IMG/VR virus record: IMGVR_UViG_3300045988_064919
Span: 1-28,832 of that record
From: a virus
Reading direction: 5' to 3' (one strand)
Length of the DNA: 28,832 nucleotides
Shown: one piece after another, positions 4,377 through 28,832 of the stretch
How the letters are laid out: each line of letters opens with the position of its first letter
Position numbering within the stretch: the first letter of the stretch is position 1
Notes under the pieces: model-generated
What the model saw: only the letters and a program-made list of their open reading frames with translations
What the model was told of the DNA's origin: nothing
Databases searched by the model: none
Position numbers and translations under genes: made by a program

Positions 4377-4378
4377 CA

Positions 4379-5995: not shown

Positions 5996-6364
5996 ATAGC
6001 AAGAAAAAAAATTATTAATCAAAAACAGTTTGAAGCTTTATGTGAAATTCAATGTACAAAAGATGAAATCTGTTCTGTGTTAGATGTATCGGACAAAACA
6101 TTAGACAGATGGTGTAAAGAAACATATAAAGCGTCATTCTCCGAAATTTTCAGGCAAAAAAGACAAGGAGGATGCGCAAGCCTAAGAGCAAAGCAGTGGA
6201 AATTAGCTTCTAAAAGCCCTGCTATGGCTATTTTCTTAGGTAAACAATTCTTAGGGCAAACAGATAAGGTAGAAACACATTTTGACGCTTCAGAAGTAAA
6301 TGCAATTAATAAAGCTATGATTACAGATGTAGCAAAAGAAAGAAGAATTGAAGACTTTGAATAA
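5996..6364 (+). CDS. terS: Terminase small subunit, apparent ATA start
   Basis: AGAGGTGA (5982-5989) + 6 nt + ATA GCA AGA AAA AAA (MARKK). QKQFEALCEIQCTKDEICSVLDVSDKTLDRWCKE...AMAIFLGKQFLGQ is typical TerS. The first canonical in-frame start is GTG 6077, with no SD. Confidence 0.75.
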   Translation: MARKKIINQKQFEALCEIQCTKDEICSVLDVSDKTLDRWCKETYKASFSEIFRQKRQGGCASLRAKQWKLASKSPAMAIFLGKQFLGQTDKVETHFDASEVNAINKAMITDVAKERRIEDFE

Positions 6365-7682: not shown

Positions 7683-7685
7683 GAA

Positions 7686-9892: not shown

Positions 9893-9903
9893 ATGTGATA
9901 CAT

Positions 9904-10439
9904 ATGAACGTTATTGAGGTTGATGTAGGAAAGACAAAGTTATTCAGTATTGGACAACAATACAATAGCAATGCATTAGTTATTCATTTTGTTAATTTGC
10001 CGAATTGAAAAAATAAATACATTTATTATAAGATTGATGACATTGAAGAAGAAATTCCTTTAGTAAGTGATTTATTTATCGTGTCTAGGCCATTAATGCT
10101 TCATAGCGGAGAAGTTAAAGCTTAAATCATCACACGTGAATGTATTCATTCCATTCGAAGCAAAAGCCGGTACGCTATTTACACAAATTACCCTACAACC
10201 GTACTGACATCAGAAAGCGAAATATCTGTTGGGTATGTAGCGGATACGGAAGCATATATCGAAAAGAGAATTAAAGAAGAGAATCAATCTCTGCAAAAAC
10301 AAATTCTCGAAATTCAAAACGCTTTAATTAGTCAGAAAATTTCGGATGTATAATCCAAGCTAAAAGCAGTGCAAAGTTGCCAATTCAGAATCTAAGAGTA
10401 TTCGGCGTTGGAACAGAAACTTGGAAAGAAATCATGTAG
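9904..10439 (+). pseudogene. Disrupted structural-module gene (in-frame TGA 10006-10008 and TAA 10123-10125, probable frameshift near 10340)
   Basis: One frame reads MNVIEVDVGKTKLFSIGQQYNSNALVIHFVNLPN*KNKYIYYKIDD...GEVKA*IITRE...YIEKRIKEENQSLQKQILEIQNALISQKISDV*. A protein-like continuation follows in another frame to TAG 10437-10439. Confidence 0.5.
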
Positions 10440-10495
10440 TAAACTAAATAAGAATATAGTTGATTAATTGAATATATAAAAAAAGGAGGAATAAC

Positions 10496-11407
10496 ATGGC
10501 AGGAAAACAAGTGACAGAGCTAGACACATTGCCTAGCTTTACAGATACAAGCTTATTGCCTGTGCACAATGGTGCAGGATTAAAAAAGGGATTATTATCA
10601 CAATTAGCGAATTATTTAGGAAACAAATTCAGTAATCCGAATTTATTGATTAATCCTGATTTTAAAATTAATCAGAGAGCAAAAAGTACTTACAGTTCTA
10701 CCGGAGCAGGATGTACGGTTGACAGATGGATTGGAACAAACGTAAAGACGGTAGTCAATTCAGATGGTACTGTATCTGTATCTTCTTTAAGTGGTACAGG
10801 ATATTATACGCAACACGAAGAAAGTATTTCATACGGAAAACATACGTATTCAATTTATGTTCAAGCAATTACCGGAACAGTAAAAGCTTTTTATAAAAGC
10901 AAGAATTCAAAAGATGTTGAATTAGGAACATTAAAGAAGGGATTGAATATCTTTACATCAGTTGATGATGGATTTAAAAGCATTTTCTTAAGCGTCGCAG
11001 GAAGTTCATCTGTAACTTTGAAATATGCAAAGGTAGAGCAAGGAACAGTAGCAACAACATTTATTGCACCTAACATGGCAGAAGAATTAATTAAATGCTA
11101 TAGATTCTATCAGATTGTGAGCATTGATATGTCAAAGATATCATTTGATGGAAATCAAGGCTTTATTTCATTTACGCCGAAAGTTAAGATGAGAAGTACG
11201 CCAACAATAGGTTATTGGACAAACAAACTTTATATGCGTAAATCCTATACAGATATGACACTTGAAGAATTGGCATTTAATAAAGCGTGGGCTTCCAGTG
11301 ATACCGTAATCGGTGTGGGGTTTAATGTTTCTTATAATAGAATATCTATGCTAACGCCAATCAATAATCATTTAGACAGATTCGAATTGGACGCGGAAAT
11401 TTATTAG
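10496..11407 (+). CDS. Tail fibre / receptor-binding-like protein (XkdV-position)
   Basis: ATG after AAAGGAGG. The N-terminus MAGKQVTELDTLPSFTDTSLLPVHNGAGLKKGLLSQLANYL is typical of fibre proteins. It is followed by XkdX-type genes. Confidence 0.5.
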   Translation: MAGKQVTELDTLPSFTDTSLLPVHNGAGLKKGLLSQLANYLGNKFSNPNLLINPDFKINQRAKSTYSSTGAGCTVDRWIGTNVKTVVNSDGTVSVSSLSGTGYYTQHEESISYGKHTYSIYVQAITGTVKAFYKSKNSKDVELGTLKKGLNIFTSVDDGFKSIFLSVAGSSSVTLKYAKVEQGTVATTFIAPNMAEELIKCYRFYQIVSIDMSKISFDGNQGFISFTPKVKMRSTPTIGYWTNKLYMRKSYTDMTLEELAFNKAWASSDTVIGVGFNVSYNRISMLTPINNHLDRFELDAEIY

Positions 11408-11416
11408 GAGGAAGTT

Positions 11417-11764
11417 ATGGAGAACGAATATAAAGTATACGTATCCTTACAAGATGGATACATCACATCTATTAATTCAGAAATCTTTTTATCAGAAGAA
11501 GAAATGTCAACTATGACAGAGATTGACAAAGGGCAAGGTGATAAATACGCACACGCACAAAGTCAATATTTAGAAAAAGGATTAGTTGATGAACACGGAA
11601 GATATAATTATAAATATGTAGAAGGTAAAGTGATTGAGGTTGCAGAAGCAGATAAACCTACAATTGAAGAACCAAAAGCATTACCAACTGAGCAAGAGAA
11701 GATTAATGCACAATTAATGTTACAAATTGCACAATTAAAAGTTCAATTGAATGGGGTGAAATAG
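11417..11764 (+). CDS. Hypothetical fibre-associated protein (XkdW position)
   Basis: ATG after AGGAGG. 115 aa. Assigned by synteny only. Confidence 0.4.
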   Translation: MENEYKVYVSLQDGYITSINSEIFLSEEEMSTMTEIDKGQGDKYAHAQSQYLEKGLVDEHGRYNYKYVEGKVIEVAEADKPTIEEPKALPTEQEKINAQLMLQIAQLKVQLNGVK

Positions 11765-11765
11765 T

Positions 11766-11885
11766 ATGAGTTATGAATTAATTAAATCGTATTATGAATT
11801 AGGCTTATTCACAAAGAGCGACTTAGAACTCTTTGCTTCTATTGGATGGATTACAGAAAAGCAGAAGAAAGAGTTAATTAAATAG
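11766..11885 (+). CDS. XkdX-family small protein
   Basis: 39 aa: MSYELIKSYYELGLFTKSDLELFASIGWITEKQKKELIK matches the XkdX pattern (YY..g.ft..dl..fv..g.IT...y..i). Not in the ORF track because it is short. Confidence 0.6.
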   Translation: MSYELIKSYYELGLFTKSDLELFASIGWITEKQKKELIK

Positions 11886-11901
11886 GCTTTAAAAGCGTTT
11901 T

Positions 11902-11923
11902 AAAGGGCTTAAATGCCCTTTTT
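11902..11923 (+). terminator. Rho-independent terminator closing the fibre cassette
   Basis: AAAGGGC-TTAAAT-GCCCTTT followed by a T run. Confidence 0.65.
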
Positions 11924-11939
11924 ATATAGGAGCATATAA

Positions 11940-13121
11940 ATGTTAAGTGAAGAAGAACAAATGGAACAAGAACGCAAAGAACGGCAAGAAAAAAGAAAGC
12001 AAGAGCGCTTGCAAAAGCAAATTGAGAAAAGAAGAAAGCTTGAAGAAAGAGAACGAAAAAGTGTAAAGCGTGCAAGTGTATTTGAATTAGGAATGATGAT
12101 ATTCGTGTCTAATAAAATTCGTGAAGTTTTAGAAAAAGCCACCGAAGAAAATGCAAAATTTAATGAGATATTGGCAAAATCACTCGTGGATTTGCGTAAA
12201 TTCACAAAAAAAGAATCAAAAAGCCTAAAAAAAGATGTAATCAATGAATCAAAAAAGGACTTTGAAGAAAATAAGAATGGAACACTTGATTTAATTGAAG
12301 TTGGAAGTGGAAAGCCTATCAAAAAGAAGCTCAAGATAGATTTATATATTAGTCCACAAGACGAGACTTCAAAGCGTTGGAAGAAATATATCAAGACAAG
12401 TGCTAACACGTATGCAATCGGTAAAGATAAACTACCGGTATTCTTTACAAAAGTAGTTCAAGAAGAAGTTAAGAATGTAGTAGGTGGTAAATGCACAATT
12501 GATGATTCTTGTAGAAAAGCTATTTCTAAATTAGCAGACAGTGGCGTAAAGATTGTGGAATATGATACAGGAGTTAAAAGAAATGTAGATGTGTGGGTAA
12601 GGCAACAAATGCAGTACGCAGAAAAGGAATCATCACAAGAAATTAACAATAAATACGCTAAAGATATGGGAGTTACTGTATTCGAGTTTGACGCTCACGC
12701 AAACGCACGTCCAAGTCATAAGAAGTGGCAAGGGAAACGCTACGACACGCAAGGGAAACTATATCCTAGCTTGTTTCAGTTAACACATGGAGAAGAAAAA
12801 GATTACGGGTGTAGGCACTTTGCTCAACCTGTTTGGGATGTTGATATGCCTTACGCTTACACAAAAGAGCAGTTAAAGAATATTGATACGAAACCTTTCA
12901 TGTTTCAAGGAAAAGAATATGAAGGATATGAAGCTAGACAGTATCAAAGAGAACTAGAAAGAAATATCAGAGCGTTGAAAAGGGAAATAATCTTATTGGA
13001 CAATCAAGGATTAGGCAGTACAGAAGCCAGAATCAAGCTAAAACACGCAAATGCAACGTATAAAGCTTTCAGTTCTGAAATGGGAGACAGAGTTCACAAC
13101 GATAGGCTTAGAATTGGCTAA
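11940..13121 (+). CDS. Head morphogenesis protein (SPP1 gp7 / Mu F-like) with Glu/Lys/Arg-rich N-terminus
   Basis: FDAHANARPSHKKWQGKRYD resembles the gp7/MuF motif. Normally encoded directly after the portal gene. Confidence 0.65.
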   Translation: MLSEEEQMEQERKERQEKRKQERLQKQIEKRRKLEERERKSVKRASVFELGMMIFVSNKIREVLEKATEENAKFNEILAKSLVDLRKFTKKESKSLKKDVINESKKDFEENKNGTLDLIEVGSGKPIKKKLKIDLYISPQDETSKRWKKYIKTSANTYAIGKDKLPVFFTKVVQEEVKNVVGGKCTIDDSCRKAISKLADSGVKIVEYDTGVKRNVDVWVRQQMQYAEKESSQEINNKYAKDMGVTVFEFDAHANARPSHKKWQGKRYDTQGKLYPSLFQLTHGEEKDYGCRHFAQPVWDVDMPYAYTKEQLKNIDTKPFMFQGKEYEGYEARQYQRELERNIRALKREIILLDNQGLGSTEARIKLKHANATYKAFSSEMGDRVHNDRLRIG

Positions 13122-13217
13122 AACGCTCACATTGTGAGCTATTATGTAAGCTAAAATATAGTTAGCCAAAGCCATACCGGAGAAGATTCGGTTTATAAAT
13201 AACTTTAGGAGGGCAAA

Positions 13218-13802
13218 ATGAAAAACATTATTGAAATTTTAAAAGAATCAAACATTGAATTAACCAAAGAGCAAGAGGAATCAATTACAAAGCTAGTAAA
13301 TGATAACTACAAGACAATTGCAGAGTTCGACAAGCAAAAAGATAAGCTATCTTTAGCAGAGAACAACGCAAAGGAAATTCAAACAAAGTTTGATAATTTC
13401 AAAAAGAGCTATGATGGAGTTGATGTAGAAGAATTAAAAAATAAAATTAATACATTGACGAATGATATTGACACTCAAAAGAAAAACTACGAAACTCAGA
13501 TTAGCAAAATGAATCTTGATTCTGTATTAAGTGCAAAAGCAAAAGAATACGGATGTAAAGATTTCGATTTAGCAAAATCACAATTCAACTATGATGATTT
13601 ACTAAATTCAAAAGACCAAACAAATGACATTGACAAAGCTTTTAAGACATTAAAAGAAAATAAGCCAATCTTATTTGAGGAAAATCAAAATGAACCTGTT
13701 GCCAAAGGAAATATCGTTGGAAACAGTGGGCAAGGAGATAACCCAAACGCCGAAGATTTATTGTTACGACAGGCAATGGGCTTAACTACAGAAAAGAAAT
13801 AA
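13218..13802 (+). CDS. Scaffolding protein
   Basis: ATG after AGGAGGG. Coiled-coil, charged, 194 aa, immediately upstream of the capsid gene. Confidence 0.6.
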   Translation: MKNIIEILKESNIELTKEQEESITKLVNDNYKTIAEFDKQKDKLSLAENNAKEIQTKFDNFKKSYDGVDVEELKNKINTLTNDIDTQKKNYETQISKMNLDSVLSAKAKEYGCKDFDLAKSQFNYDDLLNSKDQTNDIDKAFKTLKENKPILFEENQNEPVAKGNIVGNSGQGDNPNAEDLLLRQAMGLTTEKK

Positions 13803-13816
13803 GGAGGATTTAATTA

Positions 13817-14686
13817 ATACCAAATGAAATTGCATTAGCTAAAACGTATGTCTCAAATTTGGATGAGGTATATAAGTCAGCTTCAGTTACAGGTGATTTA
13901 AATGCAGACGCTACAATGGTAAGAGCAGGAGCAAATGCAAAAGAAATCATCTATCCACAAATTTCTGTTAACGGTTTAGGAAACTACGATAGAAACAGTG
14001 GCTATACAGGTAACTCAGTTAAGTTAGAATGGAAAACTGCTACATTCGACTATGATAGAGGAACTAAAATCTCTGTTGATACTCAAGACAATGCAGAATC
14101 AATGAATATTGCATTCGGTAGGGCAGGAGCGGAATTAATGCGAACAAAGGTAGCGCCGGAAGCGGACGCTTACACATTCGCTAAAATTGCAAGCACAACA
14201 GGAATCACAAAGGTTTCAGAAGATTATACAGGTGCAGAAGAATTCTTGAGCGCATTGTTAACGGCTATCACTAAAATGGATGAGGATGAAGTTCCTAGCG
14301 AACAACGTATCTTGTATTCAACACCAACATTATTAAATAGCGTTAAGGCGTTGGACACTTACAAATCTCGTGAAGCTTTACAAGGATTTGCAAAGGTTGT
14401 TCCTGTACCTGCTAGCCGTTTCTATACAAAAATCAAATTGTTGAGTGGAAAAGATACAGAGTTAGAAGGCGGATACGAAAAAGCGGAGGATGGACACGTA
14501 ATCAACTTCTTGATTGTTTACAAACCTGCCGTTATGAAATGGGATAAACACACCGTTTCAAATGTAATTCCGGCAAGCAATAACATTGAATCAGATTCAG
14601 ATGTATTGAAATATCGTAAGTATGGAATCGTTGACGTATACCAAAATAAGGTAGCAGGTATTTACTTATCTGCTAGTGCTAAGTAA
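13817..14686 (+). CDS. Major capsid protein, apparent ATA start
   Basis: AAGGAGG (13801-13807) + 9 nt + ATA CCA AAT GAA. The frame opens at 13814. The first canonical start is TTG 13859, with no SD. N-terminus ...YVSNLDEVYKSASVTGDL and the position after the scaffold gene fit a capsid protein. Confidence 0.7.
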   Translation: MPNEIALAKTYVSNLDEVYKSASVTGDLNADATMVRAGANAKEIIYPQISVNGLGNYDRNSGYTGNSVKLEWKTATFDYDRGTKISVDTQDNAESMNIAFGRAGAELMRTKVAPEADAYTFAKIASTTGITKVSEDYTGAEEFLSALLTAITKMDEDEVPSEQRILYSTPTLLNSVKALDTYKSREALQGFAKVVPVPASRFYTKIKLLSGKDTELEGGYEKAEDGHVINFLIVYKPAVMKWDKHTVSNVIPASNNIESDSDVLKYRKYGIVDVYQNKVAGIYLSASAK

Positions 14687-14790
14687 TGACAGTGGAAATT
14701 GGATGGGGTTATCCTTCTAAAGTTGAAAATCCTAAAAAAGGTAAACCTCAAACAAAAAAAGAGGAAGCTAAACCTAAAAAAGAAAAATAG
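14686..14790 (+). CDS. Possible 34-aa Lys-rich protein
   Basis: The ATG shares one base with the capsid stop codon (TAATG). MTVEIGWGYPSKVENPKKGKPQTKKEEAKPKKEK. Confidence 0.3.
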   Translation: MTVEIGWGYPSKVENPKKGKPQTKKEEAKPKKEK

Positions 14791-14809
14791 CATTAAAGGG
14801 GGTTGTAAA

Positions 14810-15157
14810 ATGAACAATATCTTAGATTGGGAATATTACAATTCCCATTTTCCTAAGTTTGATGAAAATCAATTCAATCAGTATTCTTACAAAGCAGAAG
14901 CAGTTGTATTTAAGTATGTTAATGTTGATTCTATTAATGAACAGAACGAAAACACTTTAAAAGATTGTATTTGCGATGTATTAAACAATGTAATCTTTCA
15001 AGATTCAGTTGATGGTGTATCAAGTATTTCAAATGGTGGATATTCCAAAAGCTTTATAAACACTACACACTCAGACAAAAGAAACACGATTGAGGATATC
15101 ATAGCCTTTTGGTTAGGTGATACAGATTTAATGAAAGAAAGATGGATTGCATTATGA
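14810..15157 (+). CDS. Head-tail connector / DNA-packaging (gp6-like) protein
   Basis: ATG after AAAGGGGG (preferred to the TTG 14699 of the track). Assigned by position after the capsid gene. Confidence 0.5.
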   Translation: MNNILDWEYYNSHFPKFDENQFNQYSYKAEAVVFKYVNVDSINEQNENTLKDCICDVLNNVIFQDSVDGVSSISNGGYSKSFINTTHSDKRNTIEDIIAFWLGDTDLMKERWIAL

Positions 15158-15573
15158 TAGGATTCTTTGAAGATTCAATCACGCTTGTAAATCACTACTA
15201 TGATACATTGACAAGAGAAGATAGGTTTCAAGCTTCTATTCTTGATAAATGTATGTGGAGACAATCAACTGTTAGAACTGCAAACGGTAATATTCTGAGC
15301 ATAGCCACATCCACAAATATTACCATTCTATATCGTGATGGATATGTTGAACCTTACGCATACGCAAAGCTTTCAAATGATGAGAAACAAAAACACTTCA
15401 CATTAAATACGGATAAGACAGATTTCGTGTTCTTTGGAAAAGTGAAAGAAGACTTATCTAGTATTAAATCAATAAACGAAGCTAAGAAGAAATACAAATG
15501 GACAACAATCCAAAGTGTTACAGATTGTACGAATGTCGATATGTTGAAGCACTGGGAGGTTGTTTGTCAATAG
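15154..15573 (+). CDS. Head closure / minor capsid-type protein
   Basis: ATGA overlap with the preceding gene. Assigned by synteny. Confidence 0.45.
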   Translation: MIGFFEDSITLVNHYYDTLTREDRFQASILDKCMWRQSTVRTANGNILSIATSTNITILYRDGYVEPYAYAKLSNDEKQKHFTLNTDKTDFVFFGKVKEDLSSIKSINEAKKKYKWTTIQSVTDCTNVDMLKHWEVVCQ

Positions 15574-15575
15574 GA

Positions 15576-15932
15576 ATGAAAGTCAAACTTGATGTTGAAT
15601 CAATTCCCCAAATTAAACAATCAAGAGGACTTGAAGAACGTGGACGAGTGCAACGTATGATTGATAACGAAGTTATTAGGCTTATGACGCCTTATGTTCC
15701 GTATAGGAACGGTCCTTTAGCAAGGTCTTCATATAGAATGACACAAATTGGTAGTGGATTAGTAAAGCAAGGTGGGCCAAGTGCTCCATACGCAAGACGT
15801 TGGTATTACAACAAAGAGGAAGTTGAATTCGTTGGTGGCAAGGTAGACCATTGGTTTGATAAAGCTATGCGAAACGGAGGAGCAAAAGAAATCTTGAAAG
15901 AAGTACAACAAATGATAGGAGACGGAGAATGA
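15576..15932 (+). CDS. Tail-completion (HK97 gp10 / Minor_capsid_1-like) protein
   Basis: ...MTPYVPYRNGPLARSS...APYARRWYYN...DHWFDKAM resembles this family. ATG 15576 follows the previous stop. Confidence 0.5.
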   Translation: MKVKLDVESIPQIKQSRGLEERGRVQRMIDNEVIRLMTPYVPYRNGPLARSSYRMTQIGSGLVKQGGPSAPYARRWYYNKEEVEFVGGKVDHWFDKAMRNGGAKEILKEVQQMIGDGE

Positions 15933-16348
15933 CAGTATCAAAAGCATTGATTCAATGGTTATATGGCTATGGAAATATACAGATAGATGAACGTATTGAA
16001 ACGGATGTTTTAGCGCAACAAGCTATCTCTTATGCGCTATACAAAGAACCTAATGCAATTGTAGATACATACATTGATGGCTCTCAAATGCGAACTGAAT
16101 ACTACACGTTTCTAGCACGCAGGAATACACAAATTGAAGCCGAAAGGCAAGACAACAATTCTTTCTTAGAAGAATTAGAAAATTGGATTGATGAAAAGAA
16201 CTTAAACGGAGAATTACCACAACTAGACGGAAACAGATATTGCGATAATGTTTCCGTTTCAAGTGGTTTATATCTATACACGAACGAGGATAGTCAAGCG
16301 GTGTATGCCTTGACAATTCAAATTAAATACAGAAAGGAGTTTAATTAA
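15929..16348 (+). CDS. Tail terminator-like head-tail joining protein
   Basis: ATGA overlap. Assigned by its position before the major tail gene. Confidence 0.4.
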   Translation: MTVSKALIQWLYGYGNIQIDERIETDVLAQQAISYALYKEPNAIVDTYIDGSQMRTEYYTFLARRNTQIEAERQDNNSFLEELENWIDEKNLNGELPQLDGNRYCDNVSVSSGLYLYTNEDSQAVYALTIQIKYRKEFN

Positions 16349-16854
16349 TGGCAACAGCAGGAACAGAAGTAGCAACAGGGCAGACAGTCAAGAAATATAT
16401 GATTGGATTGTTCTTACAAATGGGAGAAGGTTATAAACGAGTTAAGAAATCCACGACTTTAGACATTTCTTTCAACAGTGAAACTGAAACGTATGATTTT
16501 ATCGCAGATAAGAACCCAACTGAATCATTAAAGAGTTATTCACCTAATATTTCGCAAGATTTAACAATGATTAAAGGCGAAGATGACTTTGAATACATTT
16601 ACGAACAAATGATGAAATCCGTTCCAAACAATGAAGAAGTGAACACAAAAGCATTACTAGTATTCATGTTTGACGGGGACAAGACAAAGGGGTACAAAGC
16701 TTGGGAAGTTGACGCTAAATTAATCTTTGATACATTAAGTGGTGTCGATTCCAAAATCAATTTCAACATTAACTTTGCGAGCGATATTCGTGTCGGTACT
16801 GCAAAGGTAGCAGATGGAGCAGTAACATTTACAGAAGGAACATCCAACGTATAA
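16348..16854 (+). CDS. Major tail protein
   Basis: ATG after AAGGAG. 168 aa. Assigned by position upstream of the chaperones and tape measure. Confidence 0.55.
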   Translation: MATAGTEVATGQTVKKYMIGLFLQMGEGYKRVKKSTTLDISFNSETETYDFIADKNPTESLKSYSPNISQDLTMIKGEDDFEYIYEQMMKSVPNNEEVNTKALLVFMFDGDKTKGYKAWEVDAKLIFDTLSGVDSKINFNINFASDIRVGTAKVADGAVTFTEGTSNV

Positions 16855-16872
16855 AGAAAGAAGAGGTAAATC

Positions 16873-17235
16873 ATGAATAGAATCACATATGAAGGGAAGC
16901 AGTATGAAATTCCACCTAAAACGATTGAAGTATTAAAAGCCGAGGACGCTTGTAATGCATTTCACGCTACACATGAAGAAGCATATCGAGCTAAATTCGA
17001 TTATCTGAAAACAGTATTAACAGATGGACAAATTGAAAGCATGTTAGGAAGCGTAGATATTGAACAAGTAGATTTAATGGAAGTGCTGTATATTGTGAAT
17101 TTAATTGATGAAGAATATTCAAGAAGAACAAATGAGCAAACAATGAAGAAAGCTAGAACATTAATGAACGATAAAGCAATCAAAAGCTTAATTGATGCAA
17201 GCAAAGCAGTTTCAAAGATTACGGAAAAGAAATGA
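16873..17235 (+). CDS. Tail assembly chaperone
   Basis: Assigned by position and size. Ends in an ATGA overlap. Confidence 0.5.
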   Translation: MNRITYEGKQYEIPPKTIEVLKAEDACNAFHATHEEAYRAKFDYLKTVLTDGQIESMLGSVDIEQVDLMEVLYIVNLIDEEYSRRTNEQTMKKARTLMNDKAIKSLIDASKAVSKITEKK

Positions 17236-17795
17236 TTGATTTACGGACAAAAGGCTTGCCAAATAGCATACAGTCGCTAGATGGCAAGCCTATTTTATTA
17301 AATACAGATTTTCGGTTGTGGATAAGATTCTATGAAGAATTAGAACGATTCAACAATCATGTTGTTGATGAAGTAGATTGTTCTTATTTATTCGCAGATG
17401 AACCACCTATCATAGATGAGCATATTTTAAAAGAGCTAGAGCAATTCCTATATAACCCTTCTAGCACGCCTAGAAGCGATTCTACAGGCGTTAAGACATT
17501 GGATTATGTAAAAGATGGGGAATATATTTATTCGGCTTTTATGCAACTTTACGGCATTGATTTAACGGAATGTGATATGCATTGGCACAAGTTCTTAGCA
17601 TTGGCGAATAATATTGTTGGTGATTCAACTTTATGGGGATATGCAAAAAGTGTTAGAGGGTATGAAAAGCCTTCAAAGAATGATACACAGGATAAAGCAT
17701 ATCAAAGAGCAAAAGAAGCATGGTCTTTCCCAATCGAATTAACAATAGAGGAACAAGAAATGAAAGATGAATTCGATTCATATTTTGATGTTTAG
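17232..17795 (+). CDS. Phage Gp15-family protein (second chaperone position)
   Basis: LPNSIQSLDGKPILLNTDFRLWIRFYEEL resembles the Gp15 family. Confidence 0.5.
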   Translation: MIDLRTKGLPNSIQSLDGKPILLNTDFRLWIRFYEELERFNNHVVDEVDCSYLFADEPPIIDEHILKELEQFLYNPSSTPRSDSTGVKTLDYVKDGEYIYSAFMQLYGIDLTECDMHWHKFLALANNIVGDSTLWGYAKSVRGYEKPSKNDTQDKAYQRAKEAWSFPIELTIEEQEMKDEFDSYFDV

Positions 17796-17815
17796 AAAAG
17801 GAGGTGGCAAATTGA

Positions 17816-20395
17816 ATATCGGACGGAACATTAAAGTTTGATACAAAGATTGATACAAGTGGTCTAGAGAATGGTATTAAATCTGTAAAGGTTGTATCAA
17901 ATGAAGCTACAAATGAAATCAAGGAAACTTCAAAAGCAATTGATAAGCTAGGTTCTGATGGTTCAAAAGCACCACCAAAGATTACTGATGAATTAAGAAA
18001 GCTAAATGATGAGCAAAAGAATACACAAACAGAAACGCAAGAAACAGGTTCAAAGTTTGATGTCTTTAAGCAAGTAGGAAACAGTGCATTAGATTCGATT
18101 CAAGGTGGATTTGATGGATTACTAGATAAGATTCAGAATATTAGTCCGGAAGCAACTACAATCACTGAAACCTTGACAGGATTAGGAGTTGGAGGTGTTG
18201 TAGGTGTTACTGCCGTAGCAGGAGCTATCGGTGGAATGGCATTAGCAATTAAGACAGGTGTCAATCAAGCTACTGAATTAGATGACGCTATGGCTAAATT
18301 CCAAGCTCAGACAGGTGCTTCAAGCAATGAAATGAGCAAATTTAAAAACATTGCTCGTGATGTTTGGTCTAATAATTTTGGTGAAGATATTTCAGATGTT
18401 GCCGATATGATGGCACGTGTCAAGCAACAAATGCAAGGCATAAGTGATGTCGATTTAAAGGATGTTACTGAGGATTTATTGACATTAAGAGACACATTCG
18501 GAATGGACGAGAACGAAACATTAAGAGGTGCTCAACAATTAATGAAGCAGTTCGGAATTAGTTCTAAAGAAGCTTTTGACCTTATGGCTACAGGTGCTCA
18601 GAATGGTTTAAACAAATCAGATGAGTTAGGCGACAACATTTCAGAATACTCCGGTAAATTCAAGCAAGCAGGATATTCGGCAGAAGAATACTTCCAATTA
18701 ATGCAGAATGGATTAGATGGTGGAGCTTATAACCTTGATAAAGTTAACGACGCAATCAATGAAGTTACCACAAGGTTAGTTGATGGAAATATCGAAGGAG
18801 CTTTAGATAGTTTCGATACAAAGACGCAAGATGTATTCAAGGCATGGCAAGAAGGAAGAAAAACTCAGAAAGATGTTGTGAATGCGATTGTAGAAGATAT
18901 TTCAAGAACTACAAATCAACAAGAGAAGTTGAATAAAACGGCAACGGCTTTCGGTACAATGGGAGAAGATTTTAACGCCGGATTTATTGAATCCTTAACT
19001 ACGGTAGGAAATAAATATAAAGATGTAGAAGGAGCAATGGATAAAGTCAAAGAAATTGCAAATGGTGGCTTAAAGAACGCTTTAAGTGGCTTAGGACGTG
19101 CATTTCTTGATTCATTTACTCCAATAGGCGAACTTATTACCCCTATTCTTGCAGGTATCATTGGATTGATTACATTAGCTATACAAGGTATTCAACAAGG
19201 GTTTGCAAAAGTTGGTGATGTAATTTCAAATGTATTGAGTAAGATTGATACAAGTGGAATTACAGAATTGACAAGTCAAGTTTCTGAAGTGTTAGCTCCT
19301 GCGTTTAAAGAAGTAAAAAAAGCAATTGACGAAATGGAAGTTGCGCTTGAACCTATCGCAAAAGAAATCTTAGGTAAAATTGGTAGCGCAATTCAAAATG
19401 TTGTTAACCAAGCTCAAAAGATTCTTAGCGTTATAGGACCACCAATTCTAGCAATCATTAAGAAGATTATTCAAACGGTAGTTAGCATGATTCCTGTAAT
19501 AACATCTATCCTTCAAGTTGTTGGAAGTGTGGTAAGTGGAACCATTTCATTTATAACTATGGTTGTGACATATGTTGGGACTGCGATTGCGACAATACTA
19601 GGATTTATCATGCCTATTGTTCAAATTGTAGCTACAATCGTAGCGAATATTTGGTATGTAATATTAACGGTTGCTCAGAATATTTGGAGCAAAGTTAGTG
19701 AAGTAGTTATTGCGATTATTGGATTCGTAAACAATTTATTTAAGACGGTTTCGGATATCATAAACAATATTTGGAGCAAGATTCAAGATACAATGAACAG
19801 AGTCGGCGATAAAGTTAAAGGTGTTATTGATAATATCAATAAATATTTCAATGATGTTAAGAGTACTGTTTCTGATGTATTCAATGGCATTTGGTCTAAG
19901 GTTCAAGGTGTGATGGACAATGTAGGAAATAAAATTTCAAATGTTCTACAAGGAATACAGAATTCATGGAATGGCTTGACATGGTTTGTAAGTGGCGTAT
20001 TTAGCGGAATTGAAGGAGCAGTTAGTTCATTAGTTGGAAGCGTAAAAGGAATGGTAAATGGTGTTATCGGTGGCATTAACGGTGCAATCGGTATCATCAA
20101 CAAGATTCCCGGAGTGCATATTGGAAGGATTCCAAAATTAGAGCGTGGTGGTGTATTGAAGCGCGGTCAAGTTGGTTTACTTGAAGGTAATGGAGCAGAA
20201 GCAGTTGTACCTTTAGAAAGAAACAAAGCGTGGATTCGTGCCGTAGCTAAAGATATGGCTCAAATCATGCCAAGCGTTACAACGAATAACAACGGACAAA
20301 CAATTAACTTCTATAATAAAGCTCAAAGTCCGGATGAAATCGCTAGAATGTTGCGAATGCAAGCAAGATATGGATATGGAGGTGTAGTTCAATAG
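17816..20395 (+). CDS. Tape measure protein, apparent ATA start
   Basis: AAGGAGGTGG (17798-17807) + 8 nt + ATA TCG GAC GGA. ATA is the first codon after an in-frame TGA. 119 sense codons follow before the first canonical start (TTG 18173). Long helical/TM-rich body. Confidence 0.8.
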   Translation: MSDGTLKFDTKIDTSGLENGIKSVKVVSNEATNEIKETSKAIDKLGSDGSKAPPKITDELRKLNDEQKNTQTETQETGSKFDVFKQVGNSALDSIQGGFDGLLDKIQNISPEATTITETLTGLGVGGVVGVTAVAGAIGGMALAIKTGVNQATELDDAMAKFQAQTGASSNEMSKFKNIARDVWSNNFGEDISDVADMMARVKQQMQGISDVDLKDVTEDLLTLRDTFGMDENETLRGAQQLMKQFGISSKEAFDLMATGAQNGLNKSDELGDNISEYSGKFKQAGYSAEEYFQLMQNGLDGGAYNLDKVNDAINEVTTRLVDGNIEGALDSFDTKTQDVFKAWQEGRKTQKDVVNAIVEDISRTTNQQEKLNKTATAFGTMGEDFNAGFIESLTTVGNKYKDVEGAMDKVKEIANGGLKNALSGLGRAFLDSFTPIGELITPILAGIIGLITLAIQGIQQGFAKVGDVISNVLSKIDTSGITELTSQVSEVLAPAFKEVKKAIDEMEVALEPIAKEILGKIGSAIQNVVNQAQKILSVIGPPILAIIKKIIQTVVSMIPVITSILQVVGSVVSGTISFITMVVTYVGTAIATILGFIMPIVQIVATIVANIWYVILTVAQNIWSKVSEVVIAIIGFVNNLFKTVSDIINNIWSKIQDTMNRVGDKVKGVIDNINKYFNDVKSTVSDVFNGIWSKVQGVMDNVGNKISNVLQGIQNSWNGLTWFVSGVFSGIEGAVSSLVGSVKGMVNGVIGGINGAIGIINKIPGVHIGRIPKLERGGVLKRGQVGLLEGNGAEAVVPLERNKAWIRAVAKDMAQIMPSVTTNNNGQTINFYNKAQSPDEIARMLRMQARYGYGGVVQ

Positions 20396-21261
20396 ATTTA
20401 AATAAAGTTAGAATCATTGTCCGTAGGGATGATAGCAAAGAATTTGAAATCGACAACAAAAGATGGAGAATACCATCTAGTGACGGATTAGATGGATTTG
20501 ATTATGCAACACCTTCATATACTACGCAAGACAACGCATTCGGAAATGGTGCTAGATTAATCGGTTCACGTATTCCAACGAAAGAAAGAAGCGTGAAAGC
20601 TATCTTTAAGGGCGCACTAGAAGAAAAAAGAGAAGAAAGGGAGAAGCTACGGCGCTTCTTCCAATATTCTCATGTCTTTGATGTAATAGTTGAGTATATG
20701 GGAGAAAAGAAATATTGCAGAGGTCGTTTGTATGCTTATAGCTTACCCACTGTTAACATTTATAAAGATTTAGAGCTTAATTTCACGATTCTATGTACGC
20801 AACCTTTATTGCTTTCATATGATGATTTCGCAAGGAATATTGCAGAAATTGGCGAAGGTTTAGCGTTCAATTTTGAAATACCGGAAACAGGCGTAAACTT
20901 TGGAACATTTACATTCGCTAGAGAAATCTATATTGATAATCAAGGCGATACAGAAACATACTGTAGAGCCGTTATTGAAGCGTTTGGAGAGGTAACAAAT
21001 CCGAAACTATTCAATAAAGATAAATATATTCGTGTATTAGATACGCTACACAATGGTGATGTGTTAGAAATTGATTTAGTTTCAGAACCTATTTCGATTA
21101 AAAAGAATGGTGTGAATTGTATCGGCAAAGTTGACAGAACATCATCATTCAATGATATGACGATTCAGTTAGGCGAGAATATCATAGGATATACTGCCGA
21201 CAATGGAGATACGAATCTAGCTTGCACCGTTTACTATAATGAAAGGTATTTAGGTTTATAA
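20392..21261 (+). CDS. Distal tail protein (Dit), apparent ATA start overlapping the tape-measure TAG
   Basis: GGAGGTG (20378-20384) + 7 nt + ATA GAT TTA. The ATAG overlap shares bases with the TMP stop. 67 codons precede the first canonical start (GTG 20593). Confidence 0.65.
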   Translation: MDLNKVRIIVRRDDSKEFEIDNKRWRIPSSDGLDGFDYATPSYTTQDNAFGNGARLIGSRIPTKERSVKAIFKGALEEKREEREKLRRFFQYSHVFDVIVEYMGEKKYCRGRLYAYSLPTVNIYKDLELNFTILCTQPLLLSYDDFARNIAEIGEGLAFNFEIPETGVNFGTFTFAREIYIDNQGDTETYCRAVIEAFGEVTNPKLFNKDKYIRVLDTLHNGDVLEIDLVSEPISIKKNGVNCIGKVDRTSSFNDMTIQLGENIIGYTADNGDTNLACTVYYNERYLGL

Positions 21262-21263
21262 GT

Positions 21264-22277
21264 ATGTCTTATTTCGGATTAGATAAAGATTTCAATATTG
21301 TTACACATCTAGCACCTTACAACGTGCAGTGGAATCGGCGATATTATGAAACAGGAGATTTCGAGATTTATATCGATATAGGTCAGTACTCAAACGACAT
21401 TAAATATATTTATTCTACTGATGATAAAGAGTTAGGAATCGTAGAAATACCGCATTATTCAGTTTCAAACAACACGAAACAAATGTTGCTAAAAGGTTCT
21501 TTCTTTGAAAAGATTCTAGCAGATGATTGTATTTATCCTACATTCTCAAGCAGTGGAAAGATTGTTGACGTGATCAAAAAGCTATTAGACAAGTATTGCT
21601 CATGGAAAATGGGGTATAGATATGATGAATCCATTACCGATAGAGTAGACTTTCAAGAAACAGGAGCAAACCTTGACGAGAAGCTTTATGAGTTGTTATA
21701 TCCGTTAGAATTGTCGTTCCGCATAGAATATGACTATGTATCGAGTACGTTCACATTCGTGTTATATCGTGGTCGTGACTTAACTCAGAACAATGCAGAT
21801 GGAAACAACTTTGTCACATTCTCTACAGAATTCGGAAACATTGAAGAACCGGACGTTATGATTGACTCAAGTAAATACAAGAACTATGCAATTGTTTGTG
21901 GTGAAGGGAAGTCAGAAGAACGTATATACGTTGAATATGACGCTAGAATAGATAAGAATGAGCGAATTAAGAAATTGTTCGTAGACGCACGTTCTGAGCG
22001 CATGGGGGACGATATTACACTTGATGAATATAAGAAGATATTGATTCAAAAAGGGATTGAAAAACTAGCGGATTGTCAAATTGAAGAGAATGTAAATTTC
22101 GGATTGAATACAGATTCATATGAATACAAAGTTGATTTTGATTTAGGTGATAAGGTGGATGTGATTGTCACAGATATTGGATTAGTAATGACGGCTAGAA
22201 TTAGAAATATATTCGAAGTCATTAAGAGTGGATATAGAACCCTGGAATTAGAGGTTGATAATTTAAAAATCATGTAA
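21264..22277 (+). CDS. Siphovirus Gp37-like tail tip protein
   Basis: The N-terminus MSYFGLDKDFNIVTHLAPYNVQWNRRYYETGDFEIY resembles the Gp37-like family. Sits after Dit. Confidence 0.55.
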   Translation: MSYFGLDKDFNIVTHLAPYNVQWNRRYYETGDFEIYIDIGQYSNDIKYIYSTDDKELGIVEIPHYSVSNNTKQMLLKGSFFEKILADDCIYPTFSSSGKIVDVIKKLLDKYCSWKMGYRYDESITDRVDFQETGANLDEKLYELLYPLELSFRIEYDYVSSTFTFVLYRGRDLTQNNADGNNFVTFSTEFGNIEEPDVMIDSSKYKNYAIVCGEGKSEERIYVEYDARIDKNERIKKLFVDARSERMGDDITLDEYKKILIQKGIEKLADCQIEENVNFGLNTDSYEYKVDFDLGDKVDVIVTDIGLVMTARIRNIFEVIKSGYRTLELEVDNLKIM

Positions 22278-22290
22278 AGGAGTGAATTTA

Positions 22291-22797
22291 ATGAAAAAGA
22301 AAGATGGAGGATTTAAGCAAATGGCAAGAAATATGTATTTTCTAGACACAATGAATGCAATAGGTGGTGTAGCCGTAGCCGTATTGACATACGTATTAGG
22401 TGAACATTGGTATTTATTCGCATTCTTCTTATTCATGAACGTTGTGGATTACATTACAGGGTGTATGAAATCGACTATCGCTCACAAGCTAAACAGTAAT
22501 AAAGGGTGGATTGGAGTTCTTAAAAAGCTAGGATATTGGATTATGATTGTGGTTGCGTTTGCATTCAGTGTATTCTTAGTGGAAATTGGCAAAATGTTGG
22601 GAATTGATTTCCGTGTAACTACATTATTAGGTTGGTTTGTACTATCTTCTCTATGCATTAACGAGGTGCGTAGTATTATTGAGAACCTTGTACAATGTGG
22701 ATATAACGTACCAAAACCATTAACTAAAGGATTAGAAGTAGCAGATAAACTCATTAACGAAGAACAAGACAATGACGAATCAAAAGCAGATGATTGA
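22291..22797 (+). CDS. Holin (phage_holin_4_1 / TcdE-like)
   Basis: Several TM helices. FMNVVDYITGCMKS...GWIGVLKKLGYWIMIVVAF...INEVRSIIENL. ATG 22291 after AAAGGAG (the track starts at GTG 22282). Confidence 0.75.
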   Translation: MKKKDGGFKQMARNMYFLDTMNAIGGVAVAVLTYVLGEHWYLFAFFLFMNVVDYITGCMKSTIAHKLNSNKGWIGVLKKLGYWIMIVVAFAFSVFLVEIGKMLGIDFRVTTLLGWFVLSSLCINEVRSIIENLVQCGYNVPKPLTKGLEVADKLINEEQDNDESKADD

Positions 22798-22813
22798 ATC
22801 ACAATTACAAAAT

Positions 22814-22866
22814 ATTCAATTAAAATTCGAGCAGGAATCTCCTGACTTTAGTCAGGAGTAGTTGAC
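22814..22866 (+). repeat. 53-bp perfect direct repeat, copy 2 (hairpin 22839-22858)
   Basis: Identical to 3243-3295. Lies between the holin and the endolysin. Confidence 0.95.
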
Positions 22867-22939
22867 GAAGAAAGAGAAATGGTAAGAGATAAATTAAGAG
22901 AAATGTTCTCAGTATATCAGTAAAAAAAACTCTTTTATA

Positions 22940-22948
22940 TGCTATAAT
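22940..22948 (+). promoter_or_regulatory. Extended -10 promoter TGCTATAAT upstream of the endolysin
   Basis: Perfect TGnTATAAT. The same 9-mer recurs at 23805-23813. Confidence 0.5.
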
Positions 22949-22971
22949 TGGTACATAAAGGAGGGTTTTTA

Positions 22972-23733
22972 ATAAATTATCAAAGTTTTAAAGAAGCCGT
23001 ATTAGGCAAAGTATTCGACATTGACGGATACTATGGTGCTCAATGTTGGGACGGATTCGCAAAGTACATGATTGACTTAGGATATCAAGCTATCAATTGC
23101 ACGACAAGTGGTTTTGTTAAAGACATTTGGAACAATCGAAAAACAAATGGTATCTTGAATTATTGCAATGAGGTATCAATCATGCAACCGGGAGACATTG
23201 CAGTTTTTAAAGAAGTAGCAGGAATTACGCCATACAGTCATATCGCAATCTTTGATTCTGATATTGACGGAAAGCAAGGATGGTTCTTGGGTCAAAACCA
23301 AGGTGGAAAAGGTGGAGCATTCAATTTAATTAAATTGCCTTATTATGCAATCTTTGATACTGCGTTTAGACCTAAATGTTTCGCAAATGCAGGAGCAGTT
23401 AAACCAAGTATTCCACAACCTGTAGAAGCGATTGACCAAATTTTGCATTCAGGAAGCTATGTAACATCCGTACAAATGAAGATTGGCAATCAAGGATTGA
23501 AACAAATCAATAGCGATTTATGCGCATACCTTGAACAATTAGGTGGTTGGTTTCCAATTCGTCTGGTTGATAAAGTTCGTAATTCTGATGGTTACAATGA
23601 CAATGTATTGCATACAACAAATGCGATTGTCTATGTTACAAGAATTCGCGTTGATGAAGTCGACGTACAAAAGAACCTTGCGAAAATCGGTGAAATTTGG
23701 GTAAATTGTGGCCCATTAATTGAAGTGGCATAA
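22972..23733 (+). CDS. Endolysin: N-terminal CHAP domain plus C-terminal wall-binding region, apparent ATA start
   Basis: AAAGGAGGG (22957-22965) + 6 nt + ATA AAT TAT CAA. The TTG 22948 of the track lies inside the -10 box and upstream of the SD. CHAP motifs GYYGAQCWDGF and SHIAIF. Confidence 0.75.
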   Translation: MNYQSFKEAVLGKVFDIDGYYGAQCWDGFAKYMIDLGYQAINCTTSGFVKDIWNNRKTNGILNYCNEVSIMQPGDIAVFKEVAGITPYSHIAIFDSDIDGKQGWFLGQNQGGKGGAFNLIKLPYYAIFDTAFRPKCFANAGAVKPSIPQPVEAIDQILHSGSYVTSVQMKIGNQGLKQINSDLCAYLEQLGGWFPIRLVDKVRNSDGYNDNVLHTTNAIVYVTRIRVDEVDVQKNLAKIGEIWVNCGPLIEVA

Positions 23734-27703: not shown

Positions 27704-28239
27704 AAACAAAGTTGATAGGTAATTTCATCCGAAAATCAAGAAATGAAGATGGAAACTTAGAAATAACATTTGAATTAACTGAGCCAATATACGAAACATA
27801 CGCTCAGACGCTCGAAAAAGGGGCATATAGCGTGATTATAGATTCGGTTAACCATTTACGTACGAATGAACAAAATCGGCTTATGTGGAAGCTTATAAAG
27901 GATATATGTGAGAACGAAAACGCTAGTTGTAACGATACATGGGATATGTATTGCGAGTTCTTGAGAATGGCTAAAGCATTATATACATATGTTTCAGTTT
28001 TGAAAGATGGTGTTGATTCGTTGGCTCAAGCACATGGAGTTAGAGCGGTGCAAATATTGGGTACTGAGGTTAGAGACAATGGAAATGAATTTGTGAATTG
28101 TAGATTGTTTCTAGGTAGCTCACAAATGGACACGAAACAAATGGGAGTATTAATTGATTGCATATTAGATTATGCAGAACAATTAGGAATCAGTACTCAA
28201 TATTATTTAGATAAAGGAATCAAGGGGGAAGAAAAATAA
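27700..28239 (+). CDS. NinB/Orf-like (putative HNHc_6-type) recombination-associated protein
   Basis: LRTNEQNRLMWKLIKDI resembles the RS..QN..lW motif. Position fits the recombination module. Confidence 0.45.
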   Translation: MKTKLIGNFIRKSRNEDGNLEITFELTEPIYETYAQTLEKGAYSVIIDSVNHLRTNEQNRLMWKLIKDICENENASCNDTWDMYCEFLRMAKALYTYVSVLKDGVDSLAQAHGVRAVQILGTEVRDNGNEFVNCRLFLGSSQMDTKQMGVLIDCILDYAEQLGISTQYYLDKGIKGEEK

Positions 28240-28616
28240 AATTTGTAATTAAAGGAAAGCTTGATGGATTGAATGAATATATTAATGCTTGCAGAACGAA
28301 TCGTTACAAAGGAGCAGAAATGAAGAAAAAGAATGAACGATTAGTTATGGCTTATATCTTACAGGCAGTAAACTTTGGTGAAGTTTACGAAGTTAAGAAC
28401 TATCCAATTAAATTAAATATTAATTGGTATGAGCCGAACAACAAAAGAGATATAGACAATATCACATTCGCTACTAAATTCATTCAAGATTCATTAGTTA
28501 GAACAGGAATTCTAGAGGATGATTCAAGAAAATACATTAATCAAGTGAATCATTCAGTATTTACAGATAAACAGAACTCAAGGATAGAAGTAGAAATTCT
28601 AGGCGGAGGTGATTAG
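28236..28616 (+). CDS. RusA-like Holliday junction resolvase, apparent ATA start
   Basis: AAGGGGGA (28222-28229) + 6 nt + ATA AAA TTT GTA ATT AAA GGA ([24 protein letters not shown]). ATAA overlap with the preceding stop. C-terminal [26 protein letters not shown] fits the RusA motif. Confidence 0.6.
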
Positions 28617-28617: not shown

Positions 28618-28832
28618 ATAGCAGAACTAAAGAAATCGTATTACGCAATAATACCTGCAGAAGTTCGATATGATGAAGAATTGCCACCAAACGCAAAACT
28701 ATTGTATGGAGAAATTACATCATTGTGTAATGAAAAAGAATATTGTTGGGCAACAAATCAATATTTCGCAGATTTATATAAAGTTTCTAAAATTACAGTA
28801 AGTAGATGGATTAGCGCTCTATACAAAAAAGG
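28618..28832 (+). CDS. Replisome organizer, N-terminal part (runs off the window; continues at 100..652), apparent ATA start
   Basis: GGAGGTG (28605-28611) + 6 nt + ATA GCA GAA ([37 protein letters not shown]). GTG 28609 lies inside the SD. Confidence 0.6.
28734..28832. repeat. Terminal redundancy: identical to 1..99
   Basis: Read directly. Confidence 0.95.

Follow-up and report, generated by a model that had tools for sequence, protein, structure and literature searches.

In gut phages such as crAss-like phages, Lak phages, and others, stop codons are recoded by suppressor tRNAs that the phages themselves encode. With regard to initiation, initiator tRNAs with altered anticodons were reportedly engineered in the RajBhandary and Schulman laboratories, including a CUA (amber) form as well as GAU, GAC, and GAA mutants that initiate with Ile, Val, and Phe in E. 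coli. In Staphylococcus aureus, infC, ccpN, citZ, and cvfC1 have AUA or AUU starts preceded by an extended Shine-Dalgarno (SD) site (Kohl et al. 2026, PMC13009471), and ordinary tRNAfMet is able to initiate at AUA behind such a site in Bacillota with 10-30% of the activity of AUG (infC, ccpN, citZ; PMC13009471). Here, we have analyzed a 28,832-nt viral stretch (IMG/VR record IMGVR_UViG_3300045988_064919, hereafter the window), in which the tape-measure protein (TMP) gene and several other genes are predicted to start with ATA and the only tRNA gene has the anticodon UAU. It appears almost certain from comparison of related loci that ATA starts are systematic in this phage lineage, and we estimate a probability of roughly two in three (0.65) that the phage tRNA(UAU) reads them.

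Similar to the S. aureus genes and to E. coli infC and pcnB (AUU starts), the starts described here are conserved AUN codons that follow a strong and well-spaced SD site and have been missed by annotation. However, those genes are a few isolated regulatory genes read by tRNAfMet at reduced efficiency, whereas at least 8 of approximately 47 genes in this phage (approximately one-sixth), and approximately one-third of its late genes including those for the major capsid protein and the portal, appear to start with ATA, none of the sampled host genes does, and a tRNA cognate to AUA is encoded in the phage genome itself. The engineered initiators resemble the proposed phage system in that an initiator scaffold with an altered anticodon makes a non-AUG codon cognate and the amino acid follows the anticodon, but they are laboratory constructs, while the phage case would be natural and co-evolved with matching starts. 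Stop-codon recoding likewise involves a phage tRNA that alters the reading of one codon and a codon concentrated in late or structural genes, which suggests late gating; unlike that elongation-based recoding, a sense codon would be used here for initiation, and the genes contain no in-frame stops. AUA is also a regular start in mitochondria with a single tRNAMet (f5C34), but internal AUA encodes Met there and one modified CAU tRNA is used, whereas internal AUA in the phage behaves as Ile and there is a separate UAU tRNA.

The TMP gene has the longest lead without a canonical start in the window. Its frame is open to TAG 20393-20395, and the first in-frame ATG, GTG, or TTG is TTG 18173 (codon 120), from which the gene had been listed. 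The first-pass annotation had instead proposed that translation begins at an ATA located directly after an in-frame TGA and 8 nt past AAGGAGGTGG, that the 119-codon extension contains no canonical start, and that no other frame codes across it. The sequence agrees on these points (TGA 17813-15, ATA 17816-18), and numerous stops interrupt the other two forward frames. It had also placed AAGGAGGTGG directly after the stop codon of the upstream Gp15 gene, which needs correction, as the site begins 2 nt after TAG 17793-95. The assignment of the product as TMP is based on a PF10145 (PhageMin_Tail) match at residues 185-380 (85.7 bits vs. a cut-off of 33.2), matches to many PHROG TMP families, and the position of the gene between a Gp15 gene (PF06854) and a distal tail protein (Dit) gene (PF22768, phrog_33), as expected of a tape measure. 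The duplex of AAGGAGGTGG with an assumed Bacillota anti-SD tail, which is not the host's own, has an energy of -17.3 kcal/mol, among the strongest in the genome. The ATA lies 8 nt from the end of the SD pairing and 11 nt from its GGAGG core. RNA structure around this start was no better than that of shuffled sequences (z=-0.48).

To compare this region, 37 related loci were fetched, among which the start context could be compared in 34 sequences and the extension in 32 aligned sequences. Within codons 1-119, variable sites number 26 at first, 16 at second, and 78 at third codon positions, which is similar to the remainder of the gene, and neither stops nor frame-breaking indels were found in the extension. 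The context AAGGAGGTGGCAAATTGA-ATA-TCx-GAy is kept among the relatives: the start codon is ATA in 33 of 34 sequences and ATG at exactly that position in the remaining one (L071), and a relative in which the upstream TGA has become TGG (L072) has retained the ATA. On the other hand, only 2 of the 32 sequences have TTG at 18173. The position of the first canonical in-frame codon varies from one relative to another (codon 141 in 18 sequences, codon 21 in 11 sequences, codon 120 in two, and codon 1 in one), implying that a conserved start exists neither at TTG 18173 nor elsewhere downstream. For lack of a canonical codon near the beginning of the ORF, gene callers have placed the start of most relatives at codon 21 (839 aa, 'MKSVHEV').

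More distant TMPs from Clostridia-type phages and prophages have only the N-terminal motif in common with this protein, and residues 1-50 can be aligned. Twelve such loci start with 'MADGSLKFDTKIDT', their ATG being equivalent to ATA 17816, and others start one codon upstream. Thus, the comparison with homologues suggested in the first-pass annotation did not place their starts at the equivalent of 18173, and its proposal of an ATA start is favored by the coding-type variation, the conserved ATA, and the distant ATG at the same codon. Taken together, the TMP very probably starts at ATA 17816. An exhaustive HMMER search with the first 180 TMP residues gave five matches, including chimeric or code-4-style calls ('MANWISDG'), and was uninformative on the start. 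Among the database proteins that begin with 'MEHW' or 'MANW' followed by ISDG (P0001, P0121, and P0122), L072 truly has TGG at position 4683, and the others resemble code-4 calls from low-GC contigs that are short or chimeric. No GenBank phage matched the TMP region in a Megablast search, and tblastn of the first 200 residues against phages gave two weak matches only, both beyond residue 150.

The use of ATA was then examined with a long-lead detector, in which open reading frames with a minimum length of 100 codons and a lead of 12 or more codons lacking a canonical start were searched for an SD site followed by a given codon within the lead. In the window, 7 ATA, 0 ATT, and 0 ATC candidates were detected (CTG was not counted), and the relatives (624 kb) contained 193 ATA, 0 ATT, 1 ATC, and 4 CTG candidates. 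The corresponding numbers in unrelated Firmicute phage loci (538 kb) were 16, 21, 20, and 36. ATA accounts for just 16% of internal Ile codons. At four start sites (those of TMP, the small terminase subunit (terS), and the genes at 10496 and 16348), ATA and ATG interchange among relatives, while internal ATA codons are replaced by ATT, ATC, or GTA and only seldom by ATG, with just 8 of 30 being invariant; this drift indicates that AUA has not been reassigned to Met, and such a reassignment was rejected. Stop read-through does not explain the pattern either, since TGA, TAA, and TAG each precede ATA starts. A-to-I editing was also considered and rejected, as the ATA sites have no common TadA-like motif. 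With the assumed anti-SD, pairing is stronger at ATA starts than at canonical ones (median -12.8 vs. -9.4 kcal/mol, P=0.0008), ranging from -10.3 to -17.5 kcal/mol among the eight ATA sites.

The host was sampled from the chromosome beside a prophage copy (L075 and L077) and from homologous regions (approximately 35 kb, 33 genes). All 33 genes start with ATG, with no GTG or TTG, and no candidate with an SD site followed by ATA was found in this sample. If the sample is representative, such all-ATG usage is unusually pure for a Bacillota genome. Homologous capsid genes (39-52% identity) in other gut phages also start with ATG, with no ATA signal at those loci. Considering both the host sample and these phages, the trait appears to belong to this phage lineage.

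At least eight genes are predicted to be initiated with ATA, encoding terS, portal, head protein, major capsid protein, TMP, Dit, endolysin, and a RusA-like resolvase (Table 1). In a stop-to-stop analysis, several of these genes show long leads without a canonical start, each with a strong SD site and then an ATA just after an in-frame stop; seven of the eight are located within a late block (5996-23733). For the seven genes other than TMP, homologues or family profiles likewise point to the ATA codon as the beginning of the protein. In terS, residues 9-70 match positions 8-70 of the phrog_2538 profile, and the start codon is ATG in nine relatives ('MARKK...') and ATA in L099. Residues 22-462 of the portal match positions 27-482 of phrog_533, and its ATA is present in 38 of 38 relatives. 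The capsid protein matches nearly the whole phrog_422 profile (positions 3-294 of 297, residues 3-288); its residue 1 falls at the annotated Met1 in an alignment with the capsid protein of Eggerthella phage PMBT5 and at the ATG in those with three gut-phage scaffolds, and the spacer between SD and ATA shows 1-nt indels among relatives. In Dit, the first canonical codon lies 67 codons downstream, residues 18-288 match phrog_33, and residue 9 aligns with Met1 of the minor tail protein of Acutalibacter phage Fontainebleau, whose start likewise has a 4-nt overlap with the stop of its TMP gene. For the endolysin (phrog_291 positions 5-89, residues 2-81), TTG 22948 is not conserved, and indels in a T run shift it out of frame in relatives. 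The RusA start at ATA 28236 is probable and the least secure of the eight, with almost no relatives for comparison.

The tRNA gene, which the first-pass annotation had not mentioned, matches RF00005 at 4394-4466 (48.8 bits, E=9e-10, gathering score 29), with CCA directly after. ARAGORN detected no tRNA in the window at its standard setting; with a relaxed threshold, it reported 4394-4469 as tRNA-Ile(tat) with a mismatch at 1:72 of the acceptor stem. The anticodon loop, CUUAUUA, presents the anticodon UAU, which is the exact complement of AUA. Several features are of the initiator type, including the D stem GAGC/GCUC (A11:U24, G12:C23), G2:C71, C3:G70, A72, and A73. At the acceptor end, an A1xA72 mismatch is followed by A73-CCA, position 1 being A and not C. 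A11:U24 and G12:C23 are complete discriminators of tRNAfMet, and G2, C3, G70, C71, and A72 are formylation features (Silva et al., PMC1635315). The identity of tRNA(UAU) is 65-76% to E. coli tRNAfMet versus 46-53% to elongator Met, Ile2, and Ile1 tRNAs, and a variant of the L099 type with the anticodon stem UCGGU/GCCGA is 75.6% identical to E. coli tRNAfMet; of the reference sequences, that of the E. coli initiator was verified against a tRNA-Met gene present in four copies.

In common with bacterial tRNAfMet, the phage tRNA has a CAAAU-type T loop and, in one variant, the anticodon-stem halves UCGG/CCGA, but it differs from tRNAfMet (CAU, C1, G31:C39) in its UAU anticodon, A1, and U.G or C:G at 31:39. 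Since the anticodon is UAU rather than CAU, this is not a standard tRNAfMet, and what is proposed is an initiator-type scaffold with a new anticodon. It shares UAU, A73, and the ARAGORN label with elongator tRNA-Ile(UAU) of Mycoplasma mobile, a B. subtilis tilS suppressor, and jumbo phages, whereas those elongators have C11:G24, U12:A23, a paired or wobble 1:72 (G.U in the tRNA-Ile(tat) of jumbo-phage arrays), and a purine at position 37, in contrast to the initiator D stem, 1:72 mismatch, and U37 of the phage tRNA. Binding of AUA by an unmodified UAU anticodon is strong in B. subtilis, and binding of AUG is weak (PMC3919564). Internal ATA usage is alike in phage and host (12.4 vs. 10.7 per 1000 codons), and therefore codon compensation provides no motive for carrying this tRNA.

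A total of 35 copies of tRNA(UAU) in 8 variants were found in IMG/VR, in which the anticodon loop and D stem are invariant. Three fully compensatory pair changes and one change from U.G to C:G are seen in the anticodon stem, and paired states make up 99.4% of cells, all of which supports a genuine, folded RNA. Pairs 29:41 (A:U or G:C; A29:U41 in the window variant) and 30:40 (G:C) conform to R29 G30/C40 Y41. The possibility that the gene is an attP remnant was rejected in view of its full length and its covariation. Of 42 lineage contigs, 35 carry the tRNA, and it is found in 27 of the 29 that contain both TMP and portal genes, the two exceptions being truncated contigs.

It may be proposed that the extended SD site would place the 30S subunit at the ATA start, and that tRNA(UAU) would be aminoacylated, with isoleucyl-tRNA synthetase (IleRS) as the likeliest enzyme because methionyl-tRNA synthetase needs C34 and IleRS accepts UAU tRNAs in Bacillota. 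The tRNA would then be formylated, since it keeps the determinants read by methionyl-tRNA formyltransferase, and would enter the 30S P site and pair perfectly with AUA start codons. In this phage, ATA would thus work as a cognate start and not as a weak near-cognate one, and a tRNA made by the phage would be needed to express genes that are mostly late. We infer charging, formylation, P-site use, and a regulatory role of tRNA(UAU) in this scheme. If this tRNA indeed explains the function of ATA, as is probable, the first residue of ATA-started proteins may not be Met. In its fullest form, the scheme would constitute a natural orthogonal initiation system, in which an initiator tRNA changed from CAU to UAU, many start codons turned to AUA, late genes became gated, N-termini possibly became formyl-isoleucine, and initiation became independent of the host initiator tRNA; we give this whole scenario an even chance. 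Under such gating, efficient synthesis of the late proteins (terminase, portal, capsid, tail, and lysin) would require the phage tRNA, and they would stay off in a lysogen or in a wrong cell. The phage tRNA may serve to time expression, to silence genes in lysogens, or to make translation independent of host tRNAfMet; the host initiator tRNA is a known toxin target.

The main alternative, which we consider rather unlikely, is that host tRNAfMet (CAU) reads ATA as a near-cognate codon, the C34-A mismatch being tolerated by virtue of the strong extended SD sites; ATA would then act as an attenuator, maybe sensitive to IF3, and tRNA(UAU) would be an elongator Ile tRNA, a decoy, or unrelated. Such initiation is established in S. 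aureus at 10-30% of AUG activity (PMC13009471), and, given that all eight ATA sites have strong SD pairing, the phage tRNA is not strictly required for these starts. Several further observations weigh in the same direction. ATA and ATG flip at a roughly neutral rate, and selection for ATA over ATG was not significant (P(<=1 of 5)=0.39; among synonymous NNA sites, 37% have G in at least one relative). The products of most ATA genes are enzymes or low-copy virion components. No genome with ATA starts but without the tRNA, or the reverse, was found, and hence co-occurrence offers no contrast; the host comparison is limited to 33 genes. The tRNA itself has U.G, or C:G in one variant, at 31:39 in place of the initiator G:C, together with A29:U41 in the window variant. 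It also has U37, no G18G19 in the D loop, G55 for U55, and a bulged T-stem base, and position 37 is a purine in almost all tRNAs. Judging from these structural departures, tRNA(UAU) could be a poor or non-standard P-site ligand. However, near-cognate reading does not readily account for the contrast between 0 of 33 host genes on ATA or any other non-ATG codon and 8 of approximately 47 phage genes including the major capsid gene, nor for the use of ATA alone and never ATT, ATC, or CTG, although ATT starts infC and pcnB in E. coli. In addition, the only tRNA in the genome exactly complements ATA and has the fMet discriminators, its 1:72 mismatch disfavors use as an elongator, and there is no excess of internal ATA to justify one. 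These points favor reading by the phage tRNA, and both modes of reading could operate.

For the TMP gene, other starts were also weighed against ATA 17816. The 11-nt distance from the SD core to this ATA is at the long end of the range, and a canonical TTG (17812), overlooked by the first-pass annotation, lies in another frame at an ideal 7 nt after GGAGG and is conserved in relatives, both of which count against the ATA. Initiation at this TTG would have to be followed by a +1 shift into the TMP frame within the first two codons, in fact before codon 2, given the alignment of S/A2-D3-G4 with distant homologues. Several observations make this route highly improbable: no shift site is known, synonymous changes in TMP alter the 0-frame peptide (G/R), L024 no longer has the stop of this peptide, a comparable out-of-frame start is missing from the seven other ATA genes, and L071 has a plain ATG at the ATA position; the 9-codon frame is possibly a decoy or competing start rather than a conserved peptide. 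Even less credible is a start at TTG 18173 or another downstream canonical codon, with 17816-18172 as an untranslated spacer or pseudogene remnant. TTG 18173 is indeed the first in-frame canonical codon, and relatives have been similarly shortened by gene callers, but its rarity among them, the third-position-dominated variation of the intact extension, and the homology of the first 50 residues to distant TMP N-termini contradict such a start. The most remote of these options combines a start at GTG 17804 and read-through of TGA 17813 (code 4 TGA=Trp, or suppression), or else an assembly or sequencing error that turned ATG into ATA. The TGG of L072, the database proteins beginning with 'MANW...' or 'MEHW...', and the relationship of Erysipelotrichia to Mollicutes could be cited in its favor. 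However, GTG 17804 lies inside the SD site, has no SD of its own, and is GTT in L023; TAA or TAG precedes other ATA starts in frame, TGA ends full-length genes here (e.g., portal and chaperone), and the same ATA occurs in more than 30 independent assemblies from different samples.

Table 1. Positions of the tRNA gene, the genes with predicted or variable ATA starts, and the elements around the start of the tape-measure gene in the window.
Feature	Position	Strand	Remarks
Phage tRNA, CCA encoded, anticodon UAU	4394-4469	+	Single tRNA of the genome; Rfam RF00005
Small terminase subunit (terS), predicted ATA start	5996-6364	+	AGAGGTGAT then 9 nt; in-frame TGA 2 codons upstream
Portal, predicted ATA start	7686-9089	+	AAGGAGGT then 5 nt; in-frame TAA 1 codon upstream
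Head protein, predicted ATA start	9086-9892	+	ATA in 38/38 relatives; phrog_1220 profile 8-246 vs. residues 3-222
Structural gene	10496-11407	+	ATG here; ATA in 4/59 matches, TAG two codons upstream (L115, L116)
Major capsid protein, predicted ATA start	13817-14686	+	Sole ATA codon of the gene; ATA in 31-33/31-33 relatives
Tail gene, probably major tail protein	16348-16854	+	ATG here; ATA in 31/34 relatives as TAATA overlap with upstream stop
Gp15-like tail chaperone gene	17232-17795	+	PF06854, E=5e-18; stop TAG 17793-17795
Extended SD site AAGGAGGTGG of tape-measure gene	17798-17807	+	Kept in relatives
Out-of-frame TTG and 9-codon ORF (MNIGRNIKV*)	17812-17841	+	TTG 7 nt after GGAGG
In-frame TGA directly before TMP start	17813-17815	+	In 33/34 relatives; TGG in L072
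Predicted ATA initiation codon of TMP	17816-17818	+	ATA in 33/34 relatives, ATG in L071
TMP coding sequence, 859 codons and stop	17816-20395	+	PF10145, PHROG TMP families, coding-type substitutions
TTG taken as start by ORF listing/track	18173-18175	+	Internal Leu codon 120; TTG in 2/32 sequences
Distal tail protein (Dit), predicted ATA start	20392-21261	+	Overlaps TMP stop as ATAG; ATA in 30-32/30-32 relatives
CHAP endolysin, predicted ATA start, not TTG 22948	22972-23733	+	AAAGGAGGG then 6 nt; ATA in 24/24 relatives
RusA-like resolvase, probable ATA start	28236-28616	+	GGGGGAAGAAAA-ATA context; phrog_1682 from residue 2

The virus is a temperate siphovirus of Holdemanella (Erysipelotrichaceae). 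The first 99 nt of the window (1-99) are identical to the last 99 nt (28734-28832), and a rotated form of the window matches the 28,832-nt MEGAHIT k99 contig ena:ERZ27261778:k99_79064, which together indicate a complete circular genome of approximately 28.7 kb. Its TMP has homologues in more than 100 protein clusters at 91-95% identity, some of which are named Holdemanella sp. by NCBI. The sampled host chromosome has a GC content of 33% and contains PTS, MatE, PcrA, LigA, and GatC genes. No integrase was seen in the window. Relatives in IMG/VR are larger (37-38 kb), with additional genes between holin and lysin.

In the surroundings of the tRNA gene, terminator-like hairpins with T runs are located on either side (4354-4377 and 4552-4578), suggesting that it is a small independent transcription unit; a simple scan revealed no clear promoter. 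No translation-related genes lie beside it, the neighbors being a weak regulator match, a split ParB-like gene, and a protein of no known kind. The ParB-like nuclease/partition gene is split over overlapping frames (4861-5013 and 4992-5414, matching positions 7-50 and 52-108 of the phrog_620 profile), for which a frameshift mutation, a programmed shift, and an assembly error are candidates.

Cousins of this tRNA with a CAU anticodon and the same D arm (GAGC-AGUAGUA-GCUC) occur in other phages, namely L125 (7522-7596) and L165 as well as the jumbo-phage tRNA arrays of L126, L139, L142, L153, and L164. They have G1xA72 or U1:A72 ends, no ATA starts are found there, and they are probably phage-encoded initiator tRNAs that may represent the ancestral state of the UAU tRNA. 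An initiator-like tRNA(UAU) was also observed in a second, unrelated lineage (64% GC), at 4204-4280 of L166 and 3022-3098 of L168 (IMG/VR contigs 3300044449_000091 and 3300044274_000149). It has U1:A72, G2:C71, C3:G70, A11:U24, G12:C23, an AGG/CCU anticodon stem, the loop CUUAUAA, and the T loop UUCAAAU, and sits between an MptE-like gene and genes for a scaffold and a P22-type coat protein. The 11.6 kb available from these contigs revealed no convincing ATA starts, the single candidate resembling a promoter.

Some additional starts in the window deserve mention. At codon 22291 of the holin gene (22282-22797), the window has ATG and 27 of 30 relatives have ATA, and the GTG located three codons before it (22282) does not vary; the holin may start at GTG alone or have two starts, as holin/antiholin pairs do. 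For the gene listed at 14690-15157, TTG 14699 is TCG in 31 of 33 relatives, and the real start is probably ATG 14810 (SD GGGGG), giving a 115-aa product as called in relatives; this would leave a small ORF or spacer after the capsid gene. The two genes in the tail-chaperone position (16873-17235 and 17232-17795) overlap as ATGA, and the Gp15 gene is almost devoid of an SD site (-3.7 kcal/mol), which fits either translational coupling or a G/GT-type frameshift product; no slippery site was identified in this pair.

Standard gene callers accept only ATG, GTG, and TTG as starts. As a result, the genes for the major capsid protein, portal, TMP, Dit, terminase, and lysin are shortened or misplaced here, and databases contain hundreds of 839-aa 'tape measure' entries without the true N-terminus. 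In the full-text literature searched, whose incomplete coverage makes this an absence of evidence, neither pervasive ATA starts in any phage or bacterium nor a natural initiator tRNA with a UAU anticodon was found. Single AUA starts are already known; as far as could be established, a genome-borne cognate AUA initiator would be new in nature.

If only near-cognate reading takes place, the use of AUA by one-third of the late genes would nevertheless count as an uncommon form of a known mechanism. If the phage tRNA does read these starts, this would represent a start-codon reassignment carried by a virus, the initiation counterpart of stop-codon recoding in gut phages, and a natural precedent for engineered orthogonal initiator tRNAs. 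It would also raise questions about how strictly IF3 and the P site demand three G:C pairs plus CAU, whether formyl-Ile starts occur naturally, and whether private initiator tRNAs allow phages to time their late genes or to escape attacks on host tRNAfMet. The second UAU lineage hints that such a device may not be unique.

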